This document shows positions 6,482 to 19,533 of a stretch of DNA of 64,000 nt, piece after piece; position 1 is the stretch's first letter; the number at the start of each line of letters is the position of its first letter. Where the stretch lies: positions 1,305 through 65,304 of the forward strand of contig CAZUUH010000001.1 of NCBI GenBank assembly GCA_964623415.1, written 5' to 3'. The stretch comes from an uncultured Candidatus Saccharibacteria bacterium (lineage in GTDB: Bacteria; Patescibacteriota; Minisyncoccia; Phycocordibacterales; UBA9973). Position numbers and translations under genes: made by a program. Under the pieces are notes generated by a model, which saw only the letters and a list, made by a program, of their open reading frames with translations, was not told the origin of the DNA and ran no database searches.

Positions 6482-6898
6482 ATGGAAAAGAAAACAACAA
6501 CAAAAGATAAAGAATATTATAGAGCTACAGGACGTCGAAAGACTGCTGTTGCGGTTGTTAGACTATATAAAGCATCAAAGTTTTCATATACTATAAATGA
6601 TAAGGATTTAACTGATTATTTTAAAACTCCAGAATTAAGAAATATTGTTTCTGGTGCTTTTGATACGACATCACCAGTAGATAAATTTAAAACAGTTATA
6701 ACTGTTCGTGGAGGTGGTATTCATGCTCAAGCAGAGGCTATCCGACATGGTATATCAAGAGCATTGGTTCTTTATGATGGAGAATTACGTGGAACCCTTA
6801 AGAAAGCAAAGATGCTTAAACGTGACCCACGTCAAGTTGAAAGAAAGAAATTTGGTCTTAAAAAAGCTCGTAAGTCACCACAATGGTCTAAACGTTAG
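6482..6898 (+). CDS. rpsI: 30S ribosomal protein S9
   Basis: C-terminal KKFGLKKARKSPQWSKR is the hallmark S9 tail. Confidence 0.9.
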   Translation: MEKKTTTKDKEYYRATGRRKTAVAVVRLYKASKFSYTINDKDLTDYFKTPELRNIVSGAFDTTSPVDKFKTVITVRGGGIHAQAEAIRHGISRALVLYDGELRGTLKKAKMLKRDPRQVERKKFGLKKARKSPQWSKR

Positions 6899-6904
6899 AT
6901 TATA

Positions 6905-6942
6905 CAAAAATCAGAGACTTGAAAAAGTCTCTGATTTTTGTA
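6905..6942 (+). terminator. Intrinsic terminator after rpsI (14-bp stem aaaatcagagactt/aagtctctgatttt, loop gaaa, U-tail)
   Basis: Perfect inverted repeat read from the sequence, immediately after the rpsI stop. Confidence 0.6.
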
Positions 6943-6953
6943 TAATCTCTTAT

Positions 6954-7559
6954 ATGAAAGAAGAAAATAAAAATAAAACAATAATTAATGATTCAGAAAA
7001 TCAAATACAAGATGAAATTGTAAATGATTTAGAGTTTATTGAAACCAATGAAGAAGGGGAGTCTCTATTACCTAAAGATACAATCAAAAAATTAAAAGAA
7101 GAGATCAAGAATTTAAAAAAAGAAAAAGAAGAGTATCTTACTGGTTGGCAAAGAGCTAAAGCTGACTATATTAATTTACAAAAAGAATACGGAGATTCTC
7201 ATGCAAGAAGTTCTGTTTTAGTAAAAGAAAGATTTTTAAAAAGTTTACTTGCAGCAATAGATAGTTTTGATATAGCTTTTAAAAATAAAGAATCTTGGGA
7301 AAAAGTAGATAAGAACTGGCGAGTAGGTGTAGAATATATATATCAACAATTAATGACAGGTCTTTCTGATGAAGGAATAGATAAGATTGATGACATAAAT
7401 GCTAGTTTTGACCCTAAAATACATGAATCTGTTGATGTAGTAGAAACTAAAACAAAAGAACAAGATCATAAGATTGCAGATATAATACAAGTGGGGTACA
7501 AGATTGGTTCAAGAGTAATACGACCAGCTAGAATAAATATTTTTGAGTATAAAGATTAA
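6954..7559 (+). CDS. grpE: Nucleotide exchange factor GrpE
   Basis: Coiled-coil N-terminus, LTGWQRAKADYINLQKEY and a C-terminal IIQVGYKIGSRVIRPARI beta-domain are typical of GrpE. The ATG at 6954 follows the terminator; the track ORF start at 6708 overlaps rpsI and is spurious. Confidence 0.8.
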   Translation: MKEENKNKTIINDSENQIQDEIVNDLEFIETNEEGESLLPKDTIKKLKEEIKNLKKEKEEYLTGWQRAKADYINLQKEYGDSHARSSVLVKERFLKSLLAAIDSFDIAFKNKESWEKVDKNWRVGVEYIYQQLMTGLSDEGIDKIDDINASFDPKIHESVDVVETKTKEQDHKIADIIQVGYKIGSRVIRPARINIFEYKD

Positions 7560-8077
7560 ATAAATAAAGTTTTAATAAATTCTCTTCTTGTTTCTTCGTC
7601 TATTTTATCTGTAACCATTATCATTATTTCGGTTTTTAGACCAAGATCTTTTTTTATATTTGTAAATAAATGTTCGAATGGATAGATTGAAATCCAGACA
7701 GAATTTTTTATACAAACAAACTCGGCCTTCTTTAAAAGATAACGTAGCGCTTCACGTTCATTTTTTCTTTCTTCTGGAAGATCAAGCAATATTATTCTGA
7801 AATATCCATCCCATTCTGTTGAAACGAGACCATTTTCATTTTCTAAGTATAATTGATTTAGTTTATGCTTTCCTTCTTTGGTTAAGCGTATATATTCACA
7901 GTTATCTGATGAAATAGACTCAAGTAATCCATCTGCTTTCATATTTTTTATAGAACGAGAAATCGCATATTTATCCTTTGGGTTTTTGGTATTATTGTGT
8001 AATGTATCAAAAGGCACAGCTTTTTTCCCGGCTAATTTCTTTAAAATACCCCTAGAAATATTGGATTTTTTTACCAT
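7556..8077 (-). CDS. Putative transcriptional regulator: N-terminal winged HTH plus a C-terminal Cas2-like-fold (PaaX-type middle) domain
   Basis: The C-terminal RIILLDLPEERKNEREALRYLLKKAEFVCIKNSVWIS fits the Cas2/PaaX-middle-domain pattern (beta-strand with D, an Arg/Lys helix, G.r.Q.SV). It is a paralog of the gene at 15414..15914. It lies divergent from dnaK. Confidence 0.45.
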   Translation of the reverse strand: MVKKSNISRGILKKLAGKKAVPFDTLHNNTKNPKDKYAISRSIKNMKADGLLESISSDNCEYIRLTKEGKHKLNQLYLENENGLVSTEWDGYFRIILLDLPEERKNEREALRYLLKKAEFVCIKNSVWISIYPFEHLFTNIKKDLGLKTEIMIMVTDKIDEETRREFIKTLFI

Positions 8078-8110
8078 ATAATTATATTATAACATTTTAT
8101 TAGATATTAT

Positions 8111-8165
8111 ACAAGTATTTTGCGGTCACTAAATACTTGTCAAAAATAAAAGATTGGTATATACT
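8111..8165. promoter_or_regulatory. Palindromic operator (acaagtattt-N10-aaatacttgt) overlapping a sigma70-like promoter for dnaK (TTGTCA-17-TATACT)
   Basis: Perfect 10-bp arms at 8111-8120 and 8131-8140. The -35 is at 8137-8142, the 17-nt spacer follows, and the -10 is at 8160-8165. This sits in the divergent intergenic region between the regulator gene and dnaK. Confidence 0.45.
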
Positions 8166-8269
8166 TACTAAATAAAAGATTAAAAATATAAATAGCTCTT
8201 TCTTAAGACTATTAAGTTTTTAATTTATAAATTTAATAAAAAATTATTAGTTAATTTTATAAAAAATAT

Positions 8270-10159
8270 ATGAGTAAAATAATTGGTATAGACTTAGGTA
8301 CAACAAATAGTGCGGTTGCAATTATAGAAGGTGGTCAGCCTAAAATAGTTGAAAATATTGAAGGTGGAAGAACGACCCCCTCAATTGTGGCTATTTCAAA
8401 AAATAGTGATAGACTTGTTGGTTTACTTGCAAAACGTCAATCTGTAACAAATCCACAGAATACAATTTATGGGATTAAAAGATTTATGGGTCATATGTAT
8501 GATGATCCTGAAATTCAAAAAAACGCAACTACTGCTCCTTTTAAAATTCAAAAAGGTAAAGATGGGGGTGTAGAAGTAAATATTGGTGATAAGTGGTATA
8601 GACCAGAAGAAATTTCTTCAATGATACTTGCTAAGATAAAAGCAGATGTTGAAGCGAAAATTGGAGAGAAAATAACAGAAGCAATAATAACTGTTCCTGC
8701 GTATTTTAATGATGCTCAAAGAAAAGCAACTAAAGACGCTGGTATGATTGCTGGTCTTGATGTTAAAAGAATAATAAATGAACCTACAGCAGCAGCTCTT
8801 GCTTATGGATTTAACAAAAAGAAAAATGAACAAATTGCGGTTTTTGATTTCGGAGGTGGAACATTTGATATTTCTGTATTAGAGGTTTCAGATGATGTTA
8901 TTGAAGTTAAATCTACTGATGGAGATTCACATATGGGTGGTCGCGATATAGATCAAAAGATAGTGAATTGGCTAGCAGGTGAATTTAAAAAAGAATCTGG
9001 TATAGATATTACAAAAGATCCTTTAGCGTTACAACGTCTTGATGAAGCAGCTGAGAAAGCTAAGATAGAGCTTTCAACAACACTAGAAACAGAGATAAAT
9101 ATTCCATTTATAACATCAGATGCTAATGGGCCAAAACATTTATTGATTAAAATGTCTCGAGCTACACTTGAGTCTCTTGCAGAAGAATACATTAATCGTT
9201 CTATTGAAATAACAAAGCGCGCAATAGAAGCATCACCATTTAAGATTGAGGATATTGATGAGCTAATAATGGTTGGTGGTCAAACAAGAATGCCAAAGAT
9301 CATAGAAGAGGTTAAGAAATTATTTGGCAAAGAACCAAATCGTTCAATTAATCCAGATGAAGTTGTAGCACTTGGTGCTGCTATACAAGGTGGTGTTCTG
9401 CAAGGTGATGTTAGGGATGTATTGCTTCTTGATGTTATACCTCTTTCCTTAGGGATAGAAACACTTGGAGGTGTTTCAACAAAATTAGTTGAGAGAAACA
9501 CAACTATTCCTACTTCTAAATCACAAGTATTTTCAACTGCTGCCGATAATCAAACTTCTGTTGAAATTCATATAACTCAAGGAGAGAGACCGATGGCTTC
9601 TGATAATAAATCACTCGGAAGATTTATTTTAGATGGAGTTCCTCCTGCACCACGTGGTATGCCACAGATAGAAGTTACTTTTGATGTTGATGCAAATGGT
9701 ATATTAAACGTTAAGGCACAAGATAAAGCATCTGGTAAAGAGCAATCAATCCGTATTGAGGCAAGTTCTGGTTTAACAGATGCAGATATTAAAAAAATGA
9801 AAGAAGAAGCAGAATTACATGCTGAAGAAGACGCAAAAAAGAAAGAACTTGTTGATCAAAAAAATACAGCAGATATGACCATCTTTAATGCAGAAAAGAC
9901 AATAAAGGATTATGGAGATAAAATTACTCCTGAATTAAAAGCATCCGTAGAGGAGAAAATTAATCTTCTTAAGAAAGCTAAGGAAGGAACAGACCCTAAA
10001 GCTATTGATATTGCTACAGAAGAATTATCTAAAGAATTATCTAAAATTGGAGAAGTTATAAATAAAAATAATCCCAATAATGATAGTAATGAAAATAAAA
10101 CTCCAGAACAACAAGAACCAGAAATAAAAGATGCAGAAGTAAAAGAAGAAGGAAAATAA
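8270..10159 (+). CDS. dnaK: Molecular chaperone DnaK (Hsp70)
   Basis: [25 protein letters not shown] and [13 protein letters not shown] motifs match DnaK over the full length. Confidence 0.95.
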
Positions 10160-10171
10160 AATTTAATAGCG

Positions 10172-10208
10172 AGCTGTCCAACAGCTCACGGAGAGGTGTT
10201 GGACAGCT
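10172..10208 (+). promoter_or_regulatory. GC-rich 12-bp perfect stem-loop between dnaK and dnaJ, with no U-tail
   Basis: agctgtccaaca / tgttggacagct with a 13-nt loop. An alternative 7-bp hairpin gagctgt/acagctc uses the same 5' arm. Confidence 0.4.
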
Positions 10209-10225
10209 AAGCTATGTAGAAATTC

Positions 10226-11311
10226 ATGTCTAAAAATTATTACGAAACATTAGGAGTAGATAAAAATGCTTCAAAAGATCAAATAAAAAAAGCTTTTCAT
10301 AAACTTGCAATGAAATATCATCCCGATAAAAATAATGGTGATGATAAGAAATTCAAAGAGGTAAATGAAGCTTATCAGGTTCTTTCTGATGATCAAAAAA
10401 GAGCTCATTATGACCGATTTGGTAATGCAAATATGGGTGGTTTTGGTAATAATCAGAGTGGTTTTGGTGGATTTGAAGGTTTTGATTTTTCTGGTTTTTC
10501 GAATAATCAAGGTTTTGATATGGGTGATATTGGAGATATTTTTGGAGATATTTTTGGAGGTGGAATGGGGCGTTCTAGTCGAAGAGTAAAAAGAGGTAGA
10601 GATATTCAAACTGAAATTACTGTAAGCTTTGAAGAGTCAATCTTTGGAGTTAAAAAAACAATTTCATTAAATAGGCAATCTATTTGTGATATTTGTAATG
10701 GAAGTGGTGCAAAGATTGGAGCTAAAATGAATATCTGTAAGACCTGTGGTGGTTCTGGAAAAATTCAAGAAATAAAAAGATCAATACTCGGATCATTTTC
10801 TACTACTAGACTTTGTGATTCTTGTATGGGAACTGGTAAAATCCCATCTGAAAAATGTTCTAATTGTTCTGGAGCTGGTGTTTATAAAAAACAAGAAGAC
10901 ATAAATATTAATATACCTTCCGGTATTGATGTTGGAGAAATGATTAAGATGACTGGATATGGAGAAGGTATACAAAATGGAACATCTGGAGATTTATATA
11001 TTAAAATAAATATTAAACCTCATCATATTTTTAAAAGAGAAGGGTTGAATTTATTTATGGATCTTCCTATTAAATTATCAGATGCTCTTTTAGGCACAGT
11101 TTATGATCTTAAAACATTAGAGGGTAAAATTGTTCAAGTAAAAATTCCAGAAGGGGTTAATCATCATGAACTTCTTAGAGTTAAAGATAAAGGTGTACCA
11201 TCTAATCGAGGGAGAGGAGATATAATTATTAGAATAATTATTAAAATGCCAGTTAAACTATCACGAAAACAAAAAGAAATAATAGAAGATCTAAAAAAAG
11301 AGGGTATTTAA
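10226..11311 (+). CDS. dnaJ: Chaperone DnaJ (Hsp40)
   Basis: J domain (KYHPDKN), G/F-rich region and four CxxCxGxG zinc-finger repeats. Confidence 0.92.
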   Translation: MSKNYYETLGVDKNASKDQIKKAFHKLAMKYHPDKNNGDDKKFKEVNEAYQVLSDDQKRAHYDRFGNANMGGFGNNQSGFGGFEGFDFSGFSNNQGFDMGDIGDIFGDIFGGGMGRSSRRVKRGRDIQTEITVSFEESIFGVKKTISLNRQSICDICNGSGAKIGAKMNICKTCGGSGKIQEIKRSILGSFSTTRLCDSCMGTGKIPSEKCSNCSGAGVYKKQEDININIPSGIDVGEMIKMTGYGEGIQNGTSGDLYIKINIKPHHIFKREGLNLFMDLPIKLSDALLGTVYDLKTLEGKIVQVKIPEGVNHHELLRVKDKGVPSNRGRGDIIIRIIIKMPVKLSRKQKEIIEDLKKEGI

Positions 11312-11400
11312 AATCCTTTACATATTTTACATTTTTGTTATTATTATAGATATTATTATTTTATTTCAGATGTTTGTTTAAATATCTGTATTTTAAAGAA

Positions 11401-12780
11401 ATGACTAAACGCTCAGTTGCTTCTAAAAAACTTTGGAAGCTTGGTGTTAGAGATTTTAATACTCAATATTTTGATTTTAATAAAGATGGTGATCTTATAG
11501 CAAAAGAAGGTAACAATGTCTACAATCTAAGATACTTAGCTGAAAAATTTGGCACATCGCTTGAAATTCTTTTCCCATATATAATTGAAGAGAGGGTTGA
11601 GGATTTACTTGATTTATCTGCTTCCATAATCAAAAAAATGAAATATCAGGGCAAGTTTTATTATCACTATCCAATGAAAGCAAATCAGACAAAAGAGGTT
11701 GTGATGGCTATGGTTGGTGAAGGTGCAAATATTGAAGTTTCTTCTTATAATGAACTTTATATTATAAAGAAAATGCTTGAGCAAGAATCTTTCAATGAGA
11801 GTATTCGTATTCTTTGTAATGGACCAAAAACTGATAAGTACATAAATCTAATTGATGAGCTTCAACACAGAGGGCTTAAGGTTATTCCTATAATAGAAGG
11901 ACCAAATGAATTAAAAACATTTCAATTTTCTAAATATGATGTTGGTATTAGATTAGATATTCCAATAAAATCAAAAGTAGATCCAACTAAGCAAGTTGAT
12001 AGATTTGGTTTTCCTAAACATGAAATTTTAAAAATGGAATCTTTTAAAAATTTAAAAATTCTTCATTTTAGACTTGGAAAATTAGAAAAAACTCATGATA
12101 TCCTTGAAACTGCGAAATATGCTATGGATGTATACGCTAGATTAAAAGAAAAAAATCCAAATTTGGATAGTATTGATATCGGGGGAGGAATGCCGATACC
12201 TTATGAAAGAAATAAAAAATATTCCACTGAAAAGATTTTAGAAAAACTTTTTGAAATGCTAAAAAGGGAAGCAGAAAAAAGAGAAATACCACATCCAAAT
12301 CTTATTTGTGAATGGGGTAAGTTTATGGTTGCACCAGCACAGATTACAATTTTTAAAGTTATAGATACTAAACCAATAAAGAATAAAAATATTAAAGCAA
12401 ATAAATGGTATGTTATTGATGGTAGTTTTATGAATGATCTTATTGACACATGGGGTCCACTTGAACAAAAATGGTTCGTAGCACCTCTTAGTAATAAGTT
12501 TGATAATAATCTTGAAGATGTTTGGATTTCTGGTTCTTCTTGTGATTCAGATGACATATATACAGGTATAGGTGAATCTATAACTTTACCAGATTATAAC
12601 TATGATGAAAATGAATCATTCTATATAGCATTTTTTGATACAGGTGCTTATCAAGATGCTCTTGCTTCACATCATTGTATGCTTTCATCTCCAATTAAAA
12701 TAATTGCAGAAAATGGTCATATTGTTGTTGCTCGTAAACGAGAAACACCAGAAGATGTAGGTAAAGAATTCGGTTGGTAA
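11401..12780 (+). CDS. speA: Biosynthetic arginine decarboxylase (fold-III PLP decarboxylase, SpeA-like)
   Basis: YHYPMKANQTKEVVMAMVGEGANIEVSS parallels the SpeA YPIKVNQ...GLEAGSK region. It sits next to the other polyamine genes. The track start at 11374 is TTG, so the ATG at 11401 is preferred. Confidence 0.65.
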   Translation: MTKRSVASKKLWKLGVRDFNTQYFDFNKDGDLIAKEGNNVYNLRYLAEKFGTSLEILFPYIIEERVEDLLDLSASIIKKMKYQGKFYYHYPMKANQTKEVVMAMVGEGANIEVSSYNELYIIKKMLEQESFNESIRILCNGPKTDKYINLIDELQHRGLKVIPIIEGPNELKTFQFSKYDVGIRLDIPIKSKVDPTKQVDRFGFPKHEILKMESFKNLKILHFRLGKLEKTHDILETAKYAMDVYARLKEKNPNLDSIDIGGGMPIPYERNKKYSTEKILEKLFEMLKREAEKREIPHPNLICEWGKFMVAPAQITIFKVIDTKPIKNKNIKANKWYVIDGSFMNDLIDTWGPLEQKWFVAPLSNKFDNNLEDVWISGSSCDSDDIYTGIGESITLPDYNYDENESFYIAFFDTGAYQDALASHHCMLSSPIKIIAENGHIVVARKRETPEDVGKEFGW

Positions 12781-12783
12781 ATA

Positions 12784-13872
12784 TTATTTTATATATCCTT
12801 TTTTGACTAACAATTCAGCATTTAAGATTCCTCCTCCTGCTGCCCCACGGACAGTGTTATGTGAGAGAGTGACAAATTTATAATCAAATATATTGCAATC
12901 ACGGAGTCTTCCTATTGTAACCGACATTGCTTTATCATTTCCTCGATCTTTTTTAGGTTGAGGACGATTTTCTTCTTCTGTATAAATTATTGGATTAATA
13001 GGAGCAAATGGAAGTTTTAATTCTTGTGGTTCACCTTTGAAATTTTTCCAAATTTTTATAATTTCTTCTTTTGTAGGCTTCTTATTTTTAAATTCTATAC
13101 TTACACAAGCAAGATGTCCGTCTGAAACTGGTACACGGGTACATGTAGCAGAAATTTTTAAATCTGTTTTATCTACAAATTTTCCATTTTTAATTTCTCC
13201 AAGTATTTTTAATGGCTCTTTCTCTGTTTTTTCTTCTTCACCACAGATAAATGGGACAACATTATCTATCATATCCAAACTTGCTACCCCCGGGTACCCA
13301 GCCCCTGAAACAGCTTGAAGGGTAGTAATAAATATACTTTTTATAGGGTAGCCAGCCTTATTTAGGGCATAAATAGGGGTTAAATAGCTCTGTAAGCTAC
13401 AATTTGGCTTAACTGCTATAAAACCCTTATCAAAACCTCTATTCTTCTTTTGGGCAGGAATTATATCTGTATGTTTGCTATTTATCTCTGGTATAAGCAT
13501 AGGGATATCAGATGTCCATCTATTTGCAGAAGCATTTGATACTACAGGTAAGCCAGCTTTAGCATATTCTTCCTCAGTCTTTTTTATTAATTCTTTATCA
13601 CTTATTTCAAAAGCTGAAAAAATAAAATCACACTTCTTTTTTGCTTTTGAAACATCTACGACATCTTCTACTATTAGGCTTGCAACTTCTTTAGGAATAG
13701 GTGAAGTCATTTGCCATCTGCCACTAACTGAATCTGAATATTTTTTTCCTTGAGAATTTGCTGAAGCGGCAACATAAGTCACACGAAACCAAGGATGATT
13801 CTCAAGTAAACGTATATAATTTTGTCCGACCATCCCTGTTGCACCCAATATTCCTACTTTAATTTTTTTCAT
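12784..13872 (-). CDS. asd: Aspartate-semialdehyde dehydrogenase
   Basis: N-terminal KVGILGATGMVGQ Rossmann motif, active-site-like NCSLQ, and a C-terminal RGAAGGGILNAELL. Confidence 0.7.
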   Translation of the reverse strand: MKKIKVGILGATGMVGQNYIRLLENHPWFRVTYVAASANSQGKKYSDSVSGRWQMTSPIPKEVASLIVEDVVDVSKAKKKCDFIFSAFEISDKELIKKTEEEYAKAGLPVVSNASANRWTSDIPMLIPEINSKHTDIIPAQKKNRGFDKGFIAVKPNCSLQSYLTPIYALNKAGYPIKSIFITTLQAVSGAGYPGVASLDMIDNVVPFICGEEEKTEKEPLKILGEIKNGKFVDKTDLKISATCTRVPVSDGHLACVSIEFKNKKPTKEEIIKIWKNFKGEPQELKLPFAPINPIIYTEEENRPQPKKDRGNDKAMSVTIGRLRDCNIFDYKFVTLSHNTVRGAAGGGILNAELLVKKGYIK

Positions 13873-13876
13873 ATTA

Positions 13877-15214
13877 CTATTTTATAAATTTCTTATAAAC
13901 TGCAGACATTATTTTATTTATATTGTCTGTTTTAATAACAGCCTCAATCCTGTAACAATCTTCATAATAGAAAGCACTTATAAGTAAATCTGCGCCTTTT
14001 TTAACCAGCAAATCGTTAAAGTTACTTACATCTTTAGCAGTAAACAATCCAACAAGATAAATCATACTAGCTTGTGTATTCTTAATATTTCTGATTTCAG
14101 ATTTTAATTCTTGTATTGCTTCTTCTAACTGTCCGTTCTTATTATCTACTATGATTTGGACACTATAGTTAGTATTACTTATAAGTGTCATATTAATTTT
14201 ATATTTTTTAAAGATATTACAAGCGGGAAGTAAGATTTCATTTAATTTCTTGTTCTCATCTGTTAGGAGTATAAAATTTAAATCCTTTTTAATACTTACG
14301 ATCTTTGCCCCTTTCTTTATTTTTTTATTATCACTGATAACTGTTTTTGCCTTAGGATCTATAATCGATGCTATCTCAATAGGGGTTTTAAACATTCGGA
14401 CGTAGGGGATAGCTTTGTCGTGTATAATCTTACCAGCTTCTTCGGCTTCATAATAATTTATAAACGGTATAGTTTTAGCTTTTTGTATTATTTTTGGATC
14501 TGCAGAAAGTACACCATCTACATCTTTCCATAGGATTATTTTATGAGCCTTAAGTGCTGCTCCTATAAAACAAGCTGTCGTATCTGTACCTCCACGACCT
14601 AGTGTAGTAATCTGCCCATCTTTTGTTATACCAGTAAAACCAGGTATAACTATTACATCTTTTTCTTCTTTTAATTTATTTAAAATATTTTTAGAAGATA
14701 TATCGTATTCTATGTTTGCATTCTTGAAATTGTCATCAGTAATTATTTTTATCTCTTCAGATAAGATTTTTTTAGATTTTATTCCAGAAGAATTTAAATA
14801 ATAATTAAAGATGATTGCTGAAATTTTTTCTCCAAATGAAACTATTTTATCTTCAAGTTCATTATCTATTTTATTTAATTTATTCAAATCTTTTTGGAGA
14901 AGAGATAACACATCTTTAATCTCTTGTTTAGCTTTTTCTGCATATTCGGAGGATAAATCGATATCACTTATTATAATTTCATGTTTAGTATATAGCTCCG
15001 TAACGAAATCATTTATAGCTCCTTCATTAAAATTTTCTTTTAAATTTTCAACAAAAGAAAGTAATTTATCTGTGACTCCAGGCATCGCAGAAACTACTGC
15101 TATGGGTAAATAACCAGATTTAATTTCTTCTTCGATTCTTTTCTTTATAAAAAGGATATATTCCTTTTTCAGAATTCCTCCACCAAATTTGTTGACAATA
15201 ACTTTCTTTGACAT
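13877..15214 (-). CDS. lysC: Aspartate kinase
   Basis: NKFGGGIL and TTLGRGGTDTTACFIGAAL...WKDVDGVLSADPKII amino-acid-kinase motifs, with a C-terminal ACT-like region. Confidence 0.75.
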   Translation of the reverse strand: MSKKVIVNKFGGGILKKEYILFIKKRIEEEIKSGYLPIAVVSAMPGVTDKLLSFVENLKENFNEGAINDFVTELYTKHEIIISDIDLSSEYAEKAKQEIKDVLSLLQKDLNKLNKIDNELEDKIVSFGEKISAIIFNYYLNSSGIKSKKILSEEIKIITDDNFKNANIEYDISSKNILNKLKEEKDVIVIPGFTGITKDGQITTLGRGGTDTTACFIGAALKAHKIILWKDVDGVLSADPKIIQKAKTIPFINYYEAEEAGKIIHDKAIPYVRMFKTPIEIASIIDPKAKTVISDNKKIKKGAKIVSIKKDLNFILLTDENKKLNEILLPACNIFKKYKINMTLISNTNYSVQIIVDNKNGQLEEAIQELKSEIRNIKNTQASMIYLVGLFTAKDVSNFNDLLVKKGADLLISAFYYEDCYRIEAVIKTDNINKIMSAVYKKFIK

Positions 15215-15301
15215 AGTTTTATCTCGATTATTAATAACTACTTAAGTGTATAATATTTAGCTTAAAAATCAAGGAGAATTTGGAATATTTCAAATAAACA
15301 C

Positions 15302-15350
15302 ACCACCCACAAAAGAGAATTACTCTTTACGGGTGGTTTTCTTTTTTATT
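15302..15350 (+). terminator. Strong hairpin (accaccc-ac-aaaagag/ctcttt-ac-gggtggt) followed by a T-rich run, preceded by a TATAAT at 15249-15254
   Basis: Read directly from the sequence. It lies in the lysC / PaaX-like intergenic region with no plus-strand gene upstream, so it may be a leader attenuator or a short sRNA terminator. Confidence 0.45.
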
Positions 15351-15376
15351 ATTCCCTATATATTAAAAATCAATAC

Positions 15377-15412
15377 TGACACACTTTCTGCAGGTGCAGA
15401 GTTTGTGTCACT
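15377..15412. repeat. Left copy of a perfect 36-bp inverted repeat (tgacacactttctgcaggtgcagagtttgtgtcact), itself an imperfect palindrome
   Basis: Exact reverse complement of 15915-15950. It ends 1 nt before the ATG of the enclosed gene. Confidence 0.9.
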
Positions 15413-15413
15413 A

Positions 15414-15914
15414 ATGCATTTAAAGTATAATATTAATATGTCTATAGTAAGTGAAATATTAGAAGAACTTTGGAATACAGAATACAATTATAGAGGAGTA
15501 AGAGTAAATATTTTTGGTATACCTAAATTTAAAAAGTATTCACAAAGGAGTGTTCGTACGACGGTTGATCGTTTAAAGAAAAAAGGGATTATAGAAAAAG
15601 AGATTTCTGGGATAATTCTTTCAAAATATGGCAAAGAATATGTAAAAAGAAAATTCGATTCATTGAAACAATTCGAGAAACCAGAAAATATATCAAAAGA
15701 AAGAAAACTTCTTGTGATGTTTGACGTTCCTAGTGAAAGGAAAGGTGAGCGTGAGTGGCTACGTTGGCATCTAAAAAAATTTAATTATATTATGATTCAG
15801 CAAAGTGTTTGGGTTGGACCAGCTCCACTTCCAAAAGAATTCAGTAATTACCTTAAGGAAATTAAACTCGATAAATGTATTAAAACTTTTAAACTTGAAA
15901 AACCGTATAAATAA
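15414..15914 (+). CDS. Putative transcriptional regulator, wHTH + Cas2-like-fold (PaaX-type) domain
   Basis: KLLVMFDVPSERKGEREWLRWHLKKFNYIMIQQSVWVG aligns to the Cas2/PaaX middle-domain pattern, and the N-terminal half looks like a wHTH (VRTTVDRLKKKGIIEK). It is a paralog of 7556..8077. The track start at 15333 is GTG inside the repeat/terminator region, so the ATG at 15414 is preferred. Confidence 0.45.
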   Translation: MHLKYNINMSIVSEILEELWNTEYNYRGVRVNIFGIPKFKKYSQRSVRTTVDRLKKKGIIEKEISGIILSKYGKEYVKRKFDSLKQFEKPENISKERKLLVMFDVPSERKGEREWLRWHLKKFNYIMIQQSVWVGPAPLPKEFSNYLKEIKLDKCIKTFKLEKPYK

Positions 15915-15950
15915 AGTGACACAAACTCTGCACCTGCAGAAAGTGTGTCA
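15915..15950. repeat. Right copy of the perfect 36-bp inverted repeat, starting immediately after the stop codon and followed by T5
   Basis: agtgacacaaactctgcacctgcagaaagtgtgtca followed by ttttt. It can fold as a hairpin and so probably also terminates the gene. Confidence 0.9.
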
Positions 15951-16002
15951 TTTTTGTCAAATAAAATTATTCTTTAAAGGGATTACTAATCTGCAAGGAT
16001 TT

Positions 16003-16030
16003 TTGTATATTTTTACCATTTTGATATAAT
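16003..16030 (+). promoter_or_regulatory. Sigma70-like promoter TTGTAT-16-TATAAT placed only 6 nt before the ATG, implying a leaderless mRNA
   Basis: Hexamers read directly from the sequence. The ATG at 16037 sits at the expected TSS position. Confidence 0.4.
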
Positions 16031-16036
16031 TACAAC

Positions 16037-17281
16037 ATGTCAAAAATATTAGTTATTGGTTGCGGAAATGTGGGAAGCGTAGGCTTGCACAAAATGGCTC
16101 AATTTCCGAAAGTTTTCTCCGAAATACATGTAGTAGGGAGAACTCTTTCGAAGTGTGAGGCTGTTGCCAAATCCGTCTTTAAAAGATTTAAAGTTAAATT
16201 ACATATTCATATTAGTGACGTAGGCAAGGGTGATAATTTCCTAAAATTACTTAAAGAAGTAAATCCGGAGTTGGTAGTAAACTGGGGAAGTCCTTATGAC
16301 AATCTAGTTGTTATGGATGCATGTTTGGAATATGGTGTTAGATATATTGATACAGCTTGTTATGAACATCCAGATAAATATGGTTTTTCATATAAATTAC
16401 AATTAGCTAAAAATGAAGCATATAAAAAGAAAAATCTTCTTGCTATTTTAGGTTGCGGTTTTGATCCAGGAGTTTCAAATATTTTTTCTGCTTATGCTCG
16501 TGATTATCTTTTTGATAAAATAGATACCATAGATATTTTGGATTGTAATGGTGGTTCAAAAGATGAAAGTATTAAATTTGCTCCAAACTTTGATCCAGAG
16601 ATAAATCTTCGCGAGCTTATTCTTCCTATCAAGTATTGGAAAGATGGTAAATGGCAAGAAAAAGGAAAACTTATTGATGAAGATGCTCCTTTCTTTGAAT
16701 TTAATTTTCCTGAGGCAGGGAAGTTCACCCCATACCTTATGTATCATGAAGAGCTTGAGACTATTCCAAGTCATATTCCTGGTTTAAAGAAAATTCGTTT
16801 TTGGATGACATTCTCAAAGAATTATCTTACATATCTTCGAGTCCTTTACAATGTTGGGTTAACTCGTATCGATGAGATTGATTACAATGGTAATAAAGTA
16901 ATCCCTGTAAAATTTTTGAAAGCTATCTTGCCTAAGGGAGAAGATTTTAATAGTGGATACGTGGGCAAGACAAATATTGGGAATATCATAACTGGAAAGA
17001 AGAATGGAAAGAAGAAAATGGTTTATATTTACAATGTTTGTGATCATAAAGAAGCATTTAAAGAAACTGGTGGTAATGCTATTGGCTATACAACAGCTAT
17101 TCCGACTGTTACTTGTGCAAAGCTTGTACTTGAAGGGAAATGGGGTGGAATTGGTGTTAAGAATACAGAGGATGAGTCACTTGATTCAAAAGTTTTCTTG
17201 GATGAAATGGCAAAAGTTGGGCTTACATGGCAAGTAAAGAATTTGAAAGATATCCCAGCCGCACTAAAGAAAAACTACTAA
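16037..17281 (+). CDS. Carboxy(nor)spermidine dehydrogenase/synthase (saccharopine dehydrogenase family)
   Basis: N-terminal ILVIGCGNVGSVGLHKMAQ Rossmann fold, about 414 aa, directly followed by the carboxynorspermidine decarboxylase gene. Confidence 0.75.
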   Translation: MSKILVIGCGNVGSVGLHKMAQFPKVFSEIHVVGRTLSKCEAVAKSVFKRFKVKLHIHISDVGKGDNFLKLLKEVNPELVVNWGSPYDNLVVMDACLEYGVRYIDTACYEHPDKYGFSYKLQLAKNEAYKKKNLLAILGCGFDPGVSNIFSAYARDYLFDKIDTIDILDCNGGSKDESIKFAPNFDPEINLRELILPIKYWKDGKWQEKGKLIDEDAPFFEFNFPEAGKFTPYLMYHEELETIPSHIPGLKKIRFWMTFSKNYLTYLRVLYNVGLTRIDEIDYNGNKVIPVKFLKAILPKGEDFNSGYVGKTNIGNIITGKKNGKKKMVYIYNVCDHKEAFKETGGNAIGYTTAIPTVTCAKLVLEGKWGGIGVKNTEDESLDSKVFLDEMAKVGLTWQVKNLKDIPAALKKNY

Positions 17282-17287
17282 AAAACA

Positions 17288-18475
17288 ATGTCTAATAACG
17301 AAAATATATTTATAGAGCCGTGGATTGAGAGAGATGTCTTTGCAGATGTTGATTTTTCGAAAGTTAAAACCCCGGCTTATATTGTGGGTGAAGAAAAGCT
17401 CGAGAATAATTTAAAGATTCTAAATAAAGTAGAGAAAGGAACTGGTGCTAAAATTCTGATGGCTATAAAAAGTTTTTCCATGTTTAAAGTTTTTCCTCTT
17501 GCTCGCAAATATCTTTCTGGTTCTGAAGCTAGCTCTGTAAATGAGGCGAAGCTTGGCCACACAAAGTTTGGAAAAGAAACTCATACCTTTTCTCCTTCTT
17601 ATACAAATAAAAATATAAAAGAATATTTAAAGTATTCAGATCATTTAGTTTTTAATTCATTTTCTCAGTGGAATAAATTTAAGGATGTCTGCAACGGAAA
17701 AGCTTCTTGTGGAATAAGAGTAAATGTAGAGCATAGCGAAACAGATAATCCTATGTATGACCCAAGTAGACCAAAATCACATTTTGGTGTAACTATTTCA
17801 AACTTTCAAAATGAGAACATTGAAGGTCTAGAAGGATTACATTTTCATAATCTTTGTGAATTAAATGCAGATGCACTGGAAAGAACCCTAAAAGTTTTCG
17901 AAGATAAATTTGGAAAATATTTAGCTAAAATGAAATGGGTGAATTTTGGTGGAGGGCATCACATAACTCGTAAAGATTATGATTTAGATTTACTTTATAA
18001 AACAATAAAAGATTTTAAAACAAGGTATCCTCATTTAGAGGTGTACTTAGAACCAGGAGAAGCTATCGCACTTAATGCTGGAGTCCTCGTGGGTAGTGTT
18101 GTAGATACTTTTAATAATGGTATAAATATAGCTGTTTTGGATGTTTCTCCTACTTGTCATATGCCAGATGTCATAGAAATGCCTTATTTACCTACTATTT
18201 TAGGGGCTAAATCGGCCACAGAGCGAAGTAGTGATATTTATCGCCTAGTAGGACCTAGCTGTCTTACTGGGGATGTAATAGGCGAATATTCTTTCAATAA
18301 ACCTTTAAAGGTTGGTGATAAGGTTGTGTTCTTGAACATGGCCATATATACTATGGTGAAAAATAATACTTTTAATGGAGTAAATTTACCAGATATTTCT
18401 TTATTAAATAAAAAAGGTAAAATAAAAGTAATTAAAAGTTTCGGATACGAAGATTTTAAGAATAGATTATCATAA
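17288..18475 (+). CDS. nspC: Carboxy(nor)spermidine decarboxylase
   Basis: Fold-III PLP decarboxylase of about 395 aa (AIKSFSMFKV, GGGHHIT). Length and context match NspC. Confidence 0.75.
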   Translation: MSNNENIFIEPWIERDVFADVDFSKVKTPAYIVGEEKLENNLKILNKVEKGTGAKILMAIKSFSMFKVFPLARKYLSGSEASSVNEAKLGHTKFGKETHTFSPSYTNKNIKEYLKYSDHLVFNSFSQWNKFKDVCNGKASCGIRVNVEHSETDNPMYDPSRPKSHFGVTISNFQNENIEGLEGLHFHNLCELNADALERTLKVFEDKFGKYLAKMKWVNFGGGHHITRKDYDLDLLYKTIKDFKTRYPHLEVYLEPGEAIALNAGVLVGSVVDTFNNGINIAVLDVSPTCHMPDVIEMPYLPTILGAKSATERSSDIYRLVGPSCLTGDVIGEYSFNKPLKVGDKVVFLNMAIYTMVKNNTFNGVNLPDISLLNKKGKIKVIKSFGYEDFKNRLS

Positions 18476-18480
18476 AAATT

Positions 18481-19533
18481 ATGGAAAATAAAAAAATATT
18501 AGAAGAAAAAATTTCAAATTTTAATCCAAACGAGAATGGTCTTTTCGAACATGGAATCTTTGGATTACCTTTTAATATAGAAGAATCCGAATTAGTACTT
18601 GTCCCTGTGCCTTGGGAAGCCACAGTTTCTTATGGAAGTGGTTCTTCAAAAGGACCAAAGACAATACTTGATGCTTCACAACAGATTGATTTGTATGATT
18701 CTATCTATCCAAATGGTTGGAAAAGGGGAATTGCTATGCAAGATATACCTACAGATATGTATTACGAGAATATGCAAGTCTGCAAGAAAGTTTCTACCTA
18801 TTTAGGAAGTTTTTTAACTGGAAATAAAGACGAAGCACTCCTAGAAGAGATAAATAATGACTGCAAGAATCTTAATAAACGTATTGAAGAAGTTGTAGAT
18901 GGACTTTTAAAAAAAGGAAAAATTGTTGGAATAGTGGGAGGGGATCATAGCTCTCCTTTTGGATATTTCAAATCTTTGGCAAAGAAATATAGAGAATTTG
19001 GGGTTTTATACATAGATGCTCACGCAGATCTTAGATGTGCATATGAAGGTTTTAATTATTCTCATGCTTCCATATTCCACAATGTTCTCTCTATCCCAAA
19101 CATTTCAAAATTAGTTCAAGTTGGAGTAAGAGATATAAGTGAGGAAGAAATGAATATCGTAAAAGATCAAAAAGATAGAATTAAGTTATTTTCTGATTAT
19201 GAAATTAAAAAGGAATTATTTGAAGGAAAAAGTTGGGCAAAAAAATGTGATGAAATAGTAAAAAATTTACCAAAGGACGTTTATATATCTTTTGATATCG
19301 ATGGTCTCGCTCCTTACCTTTGCCCAAATACTGGTACTCCGGTTCCAGGGGGTCTAGGGATAGATGAGCTGGTTTTCTTATTTGAAAAGATAATAGAATC
19401 TAAAAGAAAAATTATTGGTTTTGACCTTTGTGAAGTAGTTCCTGGTAAAGACGGAGATGAATGGGACGGAAACGTCGGCGCTCGCGTACTCTACAAGCTT
19501 TGTTTACTTGCATTAAAAAGTAATTCTTGTTAG
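18481..19533 (+). CDS. speB: Agmatinase (arginase/ureohydrolase family)
   Basis: GGDHS, DAHADL and SFDIDGLAP metal-binding motifs, in polyamine-gene context. Confidence 0.7.
   Translation: MENKKILEEKISNFNPNENGLFEHGIFGLPFNIEESELVLVPVPWEATVSYGSGSSKGPKTILDASQQIDLYDSIYPNGWKRGIAMQDIPTDMYYENMQVCKKVSTYLGSFLTGNKDEALLEEINNDCKNLNKRIEEVVDGLLKKGKIVGIVGGDHSSPFGYFKSLAKKYREFGVLYIDAHADLRCAYEGFNYSHASIFHNVLSIPNISKLVQVGVRDISEEEMNIVKDQKDRIKLFSDYEIKKELFEGKSWAKKCDEIVKNLPKDVYISFDIDGLAPYLCPNTGTPVPGGLGIDELVFLFEKIIESKRKIIGFDLCEVVPGKDGDEWDGNVGARVLYKLCLLALKSNSC

Follow-up and report, generated by a model that had tools for sequence, protein, structure and literature searches.

PaaX is the repressor of phenylacetate catabolism; it is a competitor of RNA polymerase and also represses the promoter of its own gene, and its helical C-terminal domain, PaaX_C, has been reported to bind phenylacetyl-CoA. 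The heat-shock repressor systems of other bacteria are HrcA/CIRCE and HspR/HAIR. In this work, we analyzed a 64-kb stretch of contig CAZUUH010000001.1 (hereafter the window; G+C ~30%), in which two small genes, here called A and B, encode proteins that resemble a PaaX ending with its middle domain. Close homologs of the window genes all come from uncultivated Paceibacteria/Nomurabacteria, within the Patescibacteria (candidate phyla radiation, CPR). The best overall explanation of our data, to which we give a probability of roughly 0.72, is that A and B are dimeric repressors, each acting at a long palindrome that serves as its operator and overlaps the promoter of its own gene.

With the PaaX of E. 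coli W (8A39) and the PaaX-like proteins 3L09 and 3KFW (Rv0674), A and B have in common a predicted N-terminal winged helix followed by the domain PF20803. PaaX has 305 amino acids (aa) and includes PaaX_C, whereas A (173 aa) and B (158 aa) lack this domain and are about half as long. No paa genes were found among the neighbors of A and B (dnaK/grpE, ask, polyamine genes, tmk and dut), and B is bracketed by two predicted operators. The PaaX operator is made up of widely spaced inverted half-sites, TGATTC-N27-GAATCA (PMC9493321), to which the sites predicted here, TGACACA-N20-TGTGTCA for B and ACAAGTATTT-N10-AAATACTTGT for A, can be likened.

Cas2, especially that of type II-A (5ZYF, 5XVN/5XVO and 6QXF), shares with A and B the b1-a1-b2-b3-a2-b4 ferredoxin-like fold, the motif hhhhFD(h)P with an invariant Asp at the end of beta-1, a basic helix and Q.SVW/SV(F/Y). 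Cas2 is a stand-alone protein of ~90-110 aa that occurs with cas1 and an array, whereas in A and B the domain is fused to a winged helix and has no Cas1, array or cas neighborhood. Moreover, Cas2 takes part in spacer capture, whereas A and B would use the domain for sequence-specific operator binding and dimerization. The winged-helix dimers of the MarR, PadR and BlaI-MecI types differ in that their dimerization modules are helical, not ferredoxin-fold, and their operators are shorter than the sites of A and B. Our literature searches returned nothing on PaaX together with Cas2, on HrcA in CPR bacteria or on PaaX together with 8A39, and those on Patescibacteria, HrcA and heat shock returned only papers without mention of Patescibacteria. 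The two genes are as follows.

7556..8077, minus strand: gene A, an open reading frame (ORF) of 173 aa; winged helix and PaaX_M (Cas2-like) domain; candidate repressor of dnaK-dnaJ and of itself
15438..15914, plus strand: gene B, 158 aa; winged helix and Cas2-like/PaaX_M domain; putative autoregulated DNA-binding protein

Family and fold of A and B

An earlier reading of this DNA, hereafter the original prediction, proposed that A and B are paralogs with a common C-terminal block. Our data agree: both ORFs contain the blocks quoted at that time, the two proteins show 42% identity across 53 residues (BLASTP, E = 3e-13), and they recover each other at E ~1e-11 when the six-frame translation of the window is searched with phmmer. 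No third copy of the A/B type was found by phmmer among the six-frame ORFs of the window. The coordinates first proposed hold for A and for the end of B, but B starts more likely at the ATG at 15438 (MSIVSE...) than at 15414, because its orthologs, 156-160 aa in length, align from that methionine and a conserved TATAAT lies 6 nt upstream. Identity among B orthologs of 158 aa is 72-87%.

Both proteins match PF20803 (PaaX_M, 'PaaX protein central Cas2-like domain') above its gathering score of 24, A with 60.1 bits (residues 87-166) and B with 47.1 bits. The same family is precomputed on all listed homologs of A and B; for A, 1890 homologs were found. The N-terminal winged helix of PaaX, PF07848, reaches 13.7 bits in B (E = 0.078), under the cut-off of 24.8, and has no match in A. 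No Pfam match to PaaX_C was obtained in either protein, and both end 7-12 residues past the PaaX_M match. In the NCBIfam equivalog of PaaX, TIGR02277, A and B remain at 27.6 and 26.1 bits, under the cut-off of 264.55. The likeness to a truncated PaaX is borne out by the predicted winged helix, the PF20803 domain and the missing PaaX_C. The assignment of a Cas2-like fold is not new, as Pfam already records it.

AlphaFold2 models of A and B show a winged helix and then a beta-alpha-beta-beta-alpha-beta unit, with a mean pLDDT of 80 for A and 60 for B. When these models were compared with the PDB by Foldseek, E. coli PaaX (8a39) ranked first for both. For B it was followed by Rv0674 (3kfw) and then by more than 10 Cas2 chains, of type II-A and others, at 20-28% identity across ~70 residues (E = 0.014-0.3). 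A profile of B searched against PDB sequences found type II-A Cas2 proteins as its best matches, at E = 0.08 only, with LLVMFDIPTE aligned with LLLMFDMPTD; PaaX chains were not reached in this search at E <= 10. The Asp that closes beta-1 does not vary in either family (D99 in A, D96 in B). As had been proposed, the C-terminal block has a Cas2-like fold, a ferredoxin fold of the kind found in PaaX_M.

The family is large. With clusters at 50% identity, a combined profile of A and B matched 5349 representatives at E <= 1e-3, of which 2634 also reached E <= 1e-10, and nearly all of the best 150 matches are short forms of 150-215 aa. We scanned one genome per species, which gave 80 loci with A; the loci fetched around A and B genes amount to ~2.04 Mb. 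Besides the genes of the A and B types, these loci hold at least 10 additional paralogs, in agreement with the idea that the family of small regulators has expanded here. One extra class (~186-198 aa) begins with a hydrophobic segment that may span the membrane, followed by a winged helix and PaaX_M; its members lie at these positions of the fetched loci (L numbers).

L062, 2841-3464
L073, 3828-4436
L099, 722-1324
L119, 1679-2269
L123, 2396-3073

In L062 and L073, the paralog (~196 aa) lies between asd and an arginine decarboxylase-like gene, which suggests that a polyamine-locus paralog may exist elsewhere. That no CRISPR component lies near A and B was correctly seen from the start: Tandem Repeats Finder detected no CRISPR array in the window, the other window ORFs are housekeeping genes, and the ten least obvious ORFs have no Cas domain.

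Palindromes around B and their covariation with the protein

An exact inverted repeat of 35 nt flanks gene B, and each of its two copies forms a 34-bp dyad, TGACACA-N3-TCTGC-N4-GCAGA-N3-TGTGTCA. The sites and the associated promoter-like sequence are the following.

15377..15411, no strand: upstream predicted operator of B, TGACACA-CTT-TCTGC-AGGT-GCAGA-GTT-TGTGTCA, centered 44 nt before the ATG
15916..15950, no strand: downstream predicted operator of B, the exact reverse complement of the upstream one, starting 2 nt past the stop codon and followed by TTTTTG
15426..15431, plus strand: TATAAT, putative leaderless promoter of B, 6 nt before the ATG, with the -35 position in the right arm of the operator

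Equivalent sites were detected by a palindrome search in each locus, since arms differ between genomes; they are present upstream in 78 and downstream in 80 of the ~85 B loci. The center of the upstream site is fixed at 42-47 nt before the ATG of B, that of the downstream site lies 16-101 nt past the stop, and the TATAAT is invariant in an alignment of five cassettes. With positions numbered outward from the dyad, TCTGC (3-7) and ACA (11-13) do not vary, and complementarity in positions 8-10 is only 63-72%. At positions 14-17 the sequence differs between genomes, yet complementarity there reaches 96%; it drops to 48% when partner arms are shuffled. The upstream and downstream arms are the same in 55 of 71 loci, where chance would give 13, and the arms of solo sites found elsewhere in the loci match those of the local B in six cases of seven. 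The 35-nt repeat of the window was not found elsewhere in the A loci, even with up to 8 substitutions allowed. On the sense strand, G-T and A-C mismatches are about equally frequent (55 and 46 upstream, 49 and 47 downstream); this lack of wobble bias indicates that the symmetry is kept at the level of DNA and not of an RNA hairpin.

The arms of the sites follow the sequence of the protein. We measured the mutual information between site class and protein columns, with the spacer as a control. Arm class covaries with residues 37, 40, 41 and 44 of B (z = 11-17), all of them within the helix that precedes the beta-hairpin wing, while the spacer gave z <= 5 in scattered columns. The arm classes and the helix residues that go with them are as follows.

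Arm TGAC or TGAT: R37, R40, T41, D44
Arm TGCT: K37, R40, A or G at 41
Arm CTAT: D37, Y40, N41, S44
Arm GGAA: K37, Q40, V41, N44
Arm TGAA: R37, Q, E or H at 40, V41, D44

The same coupling is seen in protein pairs with 85% identity or more outside the helix: of 30 differences in the arm, 28 are accompanied by differences in the helix, and six of seven identical arms go with identical helices. The central 4 bp, in turn, covary with two positions in the Cas2-like domain, residues 99 and 122 (z = 9-13). Residue 99 is in the beta1-alpha1 loop, beside the invariant Asp, and residue 122 in the beta2-beta3 turn.

Center CATG: T at 99, K at 122
Center ACCT: T or S at 99, Q at 122
Center ACGT: V or I at 99, H at 122
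Center GATA: E at 99, K at 122
Center CTAC: N at 99, K at 122

Should this second covariation be real, the Cas2-like dimer would be placed on the dyad and would read its sequence.

Within the window, B is flanked by ask and a carboxynorspermidine synthase-like gene, and its wider neighborhood consists of arginine decarboxylase-like, asd, ask, carboxynorspermidine synthase-like, carboxynorspermidine decarboxylase and agmatinase-like genes. In the closest relatives (81-86% identity), B is instead found between grpE and A, in loci that are otherwise collinear; L012, L049, L082 and L084 show this placement. In the alignment of five cassettes, similarity starts at the upstream palindrome and stops at the downstream one. 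The commonest divergent neighbor upstream of B is the thymidylate kinase gene, tmk (28 of the 63 B loci with enough sequence), mostly across spacers of 101-118 nt, and genes for dUTPase, SHMT, NUDIX, MazG, nucleoside deoxyribosyltransferase and DUF1599 proteins are also found around B. Most fetched loci have a single B ortholog, and no relatives of B were found in viral contigs.

Solo palindromes occur in several other places. A B-type palindrome lies in frame within argS, at codons ~180-210, where it encodes ..TNSAMAE(S/F)V.., downstream of tmk-dut.

L125, ~6608: palindrome within argS
L127, ~820: palindrome within argS
L143, ~5941: palindrome within argS

In two of these three, the arms match those of the local B. 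Another solo palindrome, with the local arm CTATACA, is found in L090 (~14752) between thyA-folA and convergent kinase-like and dCMP deaminase-like genes. The tmk-dut neighbors, the thyA-folA site and the sites within argS point to thymidylate and deoxynucleoside triphosphate (dNTP) metabolism, to which the function of B may be tied, a less certain reading than that of its operators. In the window, the only visible targets would be B itself and perhaps ask.

Some loci hold tandem paralogous Cys-rich proteins of ~570-590 aa (L077, 10884-17972; L078, 12667-16348; L087, 634-2373), with N-terminal CxxC...CPxC motifs and no Pfam match, and B-type palindromes lie between or after their genes. A Logan contig (L162, SRR8925774), an independent assembly of the same strain, ends ~192 nt upstream of ask, inside the upstream palindrome of B; such a break is expected for a 35-nt inverted repeat assembled at k = 31 and is not evidence of inversion. 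The synthase-like gene starts with a TATAAT-N6-ATG (window 16025-16039) of the same geometry as that of B (15426-15440), suggesting that leaderless transcripts are common in this genome. The polyamine gene set (window 11374-19533; loci L006-L080) is syntenic with the dnaK locus in many Paceibacteria, and the products of ask and asd could supply aspartate semialdehyde for the carboxynorspermidine synthase-like enzyme.

Gene A and the dnaK locus

Gene A is divergent from dnaK, and a conserved palindrome lies between the two.

8270..11311, plus strand: dnaK (8270-10159) and dnaJ (10226-11311), ORFs; likely target operon of A
8111..8140, no strand: predicted A operator, 30-bp palindrome ACAAGTATTT-N10-AAATACTTGT, in the divergent intergenic region of A and dnaK, 33 nt from the start codon of A
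8137..8165, plus strand: putative dnaK promoter, TTGTCA-17-TATACT, 10/12 matches in a consensus scan; the -35 overlaps the dnaK-proximal arm of the operator
8086..8094, minus strand: putative A promoter, extended -10-like TGTTATAAT, 8 nt upstream of the ATG of A, as read from the sequence

Pfam HSP70 and DnaJ were found on identical Logan contigs. When the window genes were mapped onto the 76 other loci with enough upstream DNA, dnaK was the divergent neighbor of A within 900 nt in 75, and at 928 nt in the last. This linkage is kept despite the displacement of grpE by up to 7 kb and the lack of dnaJ in many loci. Of the two locus-specific roles first proposed, the heat-shock link of A is strongly supported and the polyamine link of B is not.

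The predicted A operator is unique in the window. Under a strict pattern, it lies ~32 nt from the start of A in 54 of 86 loci, and recognizable variants are present in most of the others; additional copies in the A and B loci were limited to noise with at least 3-4 mismatches, and no further members of an A regulon were visible within 10 kb on either side. Unlike the B site, the A operator is conserved in sequence between genomes, and the recognition-helix motif of A, YA(I/L)xRS(I/L)K, is conserved as strongly as the operator. The -35-like TTGTCA/TTGACA within the operator arm nearer to dnaK, followed 17 nt later by a -10-like box, recurs in orthologous loci, and TGnTATAAT-like strings occupy the place of the putative A promoter in most of them.

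Neither CIRCE nor HAIR was found in the 2.04 Mb of loci; the best CIRCE-like matches carry 4/18 mismatches and none is at dnaK, where HAIR is missing too. Pfam detects only PaaX_M in A, with no match to HrcA or HspR. The resemblance to HrcA and HspR is one of analogy only: a repressor gene in the grpE-dnaK-dnaJ locus, a palindrome at the dnaK promoter and, presumably for A, autoregulation. There is no relation in sequence or fold, and the operators are unrelated. Based on these sequence comparisons, A is probably an autoregulated repressor of dnaK-dnaJ in Paceibacteria.

In the window, grpE and A are convergent and their stop codons overlap by 4 nt (7556-7559), leaving no space for a terminator and no remnant of the B cassette that sits there in relatives. 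Between the rpsI stop and the grpE start (window 6897-6948), there is a hairpin with perfectly matched arms of 24 nt and a loop of 4 nt; it is terminator-like but has a T-poor tail, and a promoter-like TTGAAA-16-TATAAT lies within its 3' arm.

Proposed mechanism, alternatives and implications

Our computations establish the homology, the fold, the synteny, the sites and their covariation with the protein. From these we infer that both proteins bind their palindromes, that they repress rather than activate, that they do so in response to signals they sense, and that the Cas2-like domain contacts DNA. A would bind ACAAGTATTT-N10-AAATACTTGT between the divergent A and dnaK genes and so control dnaK-dnaJ and itself, filling the role held elsewhere by HrcA/CIRCE or HspR/HAIR. 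A dimer of B would bind two 34-bp palindromes, each with the order variable arm, ACA, N3, TCTGC, N4, GCAGA, N3, TGT and variable arm; its winged helices would read the outer arms, and its Cas2-like dimer would probably lie on the dyad and read the central 4 bp. The upstream site overlaps the -35 of the probably leaderless promoter (TATAAT-N6-ATG) and the promoter region of the divergent neighbor, so that B may repress itself together with the promoter sharing that site, which would be that of tmk-dut in most genomes and perhaps that of ask here. For the downstream site, looping, a roadblock function or termination can be envisaged. B and its two operators would form one unit that stays together when the gene relocates; we conclude, from comparative evidence, that B is most likely a dimeric, autoregulated DNA-binding protein that travels with its own operators.

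Several points weigh against this reading. A and B have no obvious sensor domain. The model of B is of low confidence (pLDDT 60 overall, 39-64 across the N-terminal half), so that the 'recognition helix' is placed from the winged-helix topology and weak Pfam matches (CggR_N, Penicillinase_R). Promoter hexamer matches were no commoner in our promoter scan than in shuffled sequence, which makes the promoters assigned here putative. The covariation statistics ignore phylogeny, and the coupling between the center and the Cas2-like domain amounts to ~5-6 class switches and is weaker among close relatives. Additionally, the genes on both sides of the downstream B site are often convergent, so that an operator of the classical kind would find no promoter there, and the site is flanked by runs of A and T; it could be a terminator, also or instead.

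In one unlikely alternative, the B palindromes are RNA hairpins, intrinsic terminators or stabilizers insulating the gene, and not protein-binding DNA. They are long, often with A runs before and T runs after, such as the TTTTTG that follows the downstream copy in the window, and a terminator scan flagged the inner hairpin, with scan counts no higher than in shuffles. However, a hairpin would not account for the equal G-T and A-C mismatches, for the poor complementarity of positions 8-10 inside the would-be stem, or for positions 3-7 and 11-13 being invariant in sequence and not merely paired; nor would it explain why the arms covary with specific residues of B and why the upstream copy keeps a fixed distance to the ATG, overlapping the -35 position. 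The two roles are compatible, and the downstream site may do both. Quite unlikely is the original prediction that B is a dedicated regulator of the adjacent polyamine operon (carboxynorspermidine synthase and decarboxylase, agmatinase), as A would be for heat shock. In its favor, B lies between ask and the synthase-like gene, with the downstream site 87 nt before the ATG of the latter; the center of that site is, however, ~104 nt upstream of this ATG, outside the putative promoter. Moreover, none of the 84 other B orthologs has polyamine genes beside it, ask directly adjoins the synthase-like gene in ten other genomes, at a distance of 83-261 bp and with neither B nor a B-type palindrome in between, and the closest relatives carry B between grpE and A. 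As a general statement, this claim is largely refuted: B is not a polyamine regulator.

The placement of B in different sites of collinear genomes (grpE/A or ask/synthase-like gene) could also suggest a small mobile or selfish cassette, in which B would read the palindromes as a transposase reads its terminal inverted repeats, with a nuclease provided by the Cas2-like Asp. Homology that begins and ends at the palindromes, copies that are exact 35-nt inverted repeats, covariation of the kind also expected between a transposase and its ends, and a fast change of specificity, which suggests few constrained sites, all fit such an element. We nevertheless consider it highly improbable, given that there is mostly one B ortholog per locus under strong purifying selection (72-87% identity), synteny with tmk in 28/63 loci, a complete dyad-symmetric site at each end, as for a dimeric repressor, and a fixed promoter geometry in the upstream copy. 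Target-site duplications are not visible around the cassette, viral contigs hold no relatives, B has no known transposase fold, and three genomes conserve a solo site in frame within argS. Only a faint chance is given to a related reading, in which B and its palindromes are a self-contained, occasionally mobile cassette whose Cas2-like domain reads and perhaps cuts the center of the repeat while the winged helices read the arms; if true, B would be a free-living relative of the Cas2 module that recognizes palindromic repeats without Cas1. It is scarcely credible that B is a genuine Cas2, a stray subunit of CRISPR adaptation, as implied by the PGAP names of many orthologs. B passes TIGR01573 (cas2) with 24.9 bits against 24.5, across 38 residues only (A has no match), and PF09827 is precomputed on a few B orthologs; the Foldseek and PDB matches to Cas2 described above and the invariant Asp point the same way. 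Against this, PaaX_M scores far higher at 47 bits, the domain is fused to an N-terminal winged helix, the window holds neither array nor cas gene, no cas family occurs among the Pfam-annotated clusters of neighbor genes of B, and B is a single conserved gene with its own predicted operators. The narrow pass in TIGR01573 explains why NCBI's PGAP often names B orthologs 'CRISPR-associated endonuclease Cas2', while JGI names them 'PaaX'. The NCBI name is wrong; it inflates CRISPR counts in CPR genomes, and its correction is due.

The repressor reading of A and B thus remains our preferred one. Three points are new in this work: A and dnaK are strictly linked, with a defined predicted operator between them; B stands between two predicted operators whose bases covary with its residues; and B is repeatedly misnamed as Cas2. 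To our knowledge, almost nothing is known about the control of transcription in Patescibacteria, because most of them are uncultivated. A is a concrete candidate for the repressor of dnaK in the large class Paceibacteria, with a defined operator at a locus from which CIRCE and HAIR are absent. B offers an unusually clean natural 'recognition code', in which four residues of a helix track four bases of the operator across dozens of genomes. We know of no solved structure of a PaaX-DNA complex, and the covariation at the center of the B site is a first sequence-based hint that the Cas2-like domain of a PaaX-type protein touches the operator dyad. In a milder version of the cassette reading, the Cas2-like domain across the PaaX family may be a sequence-reading DNA-binding module, beyond its part in dimerization.

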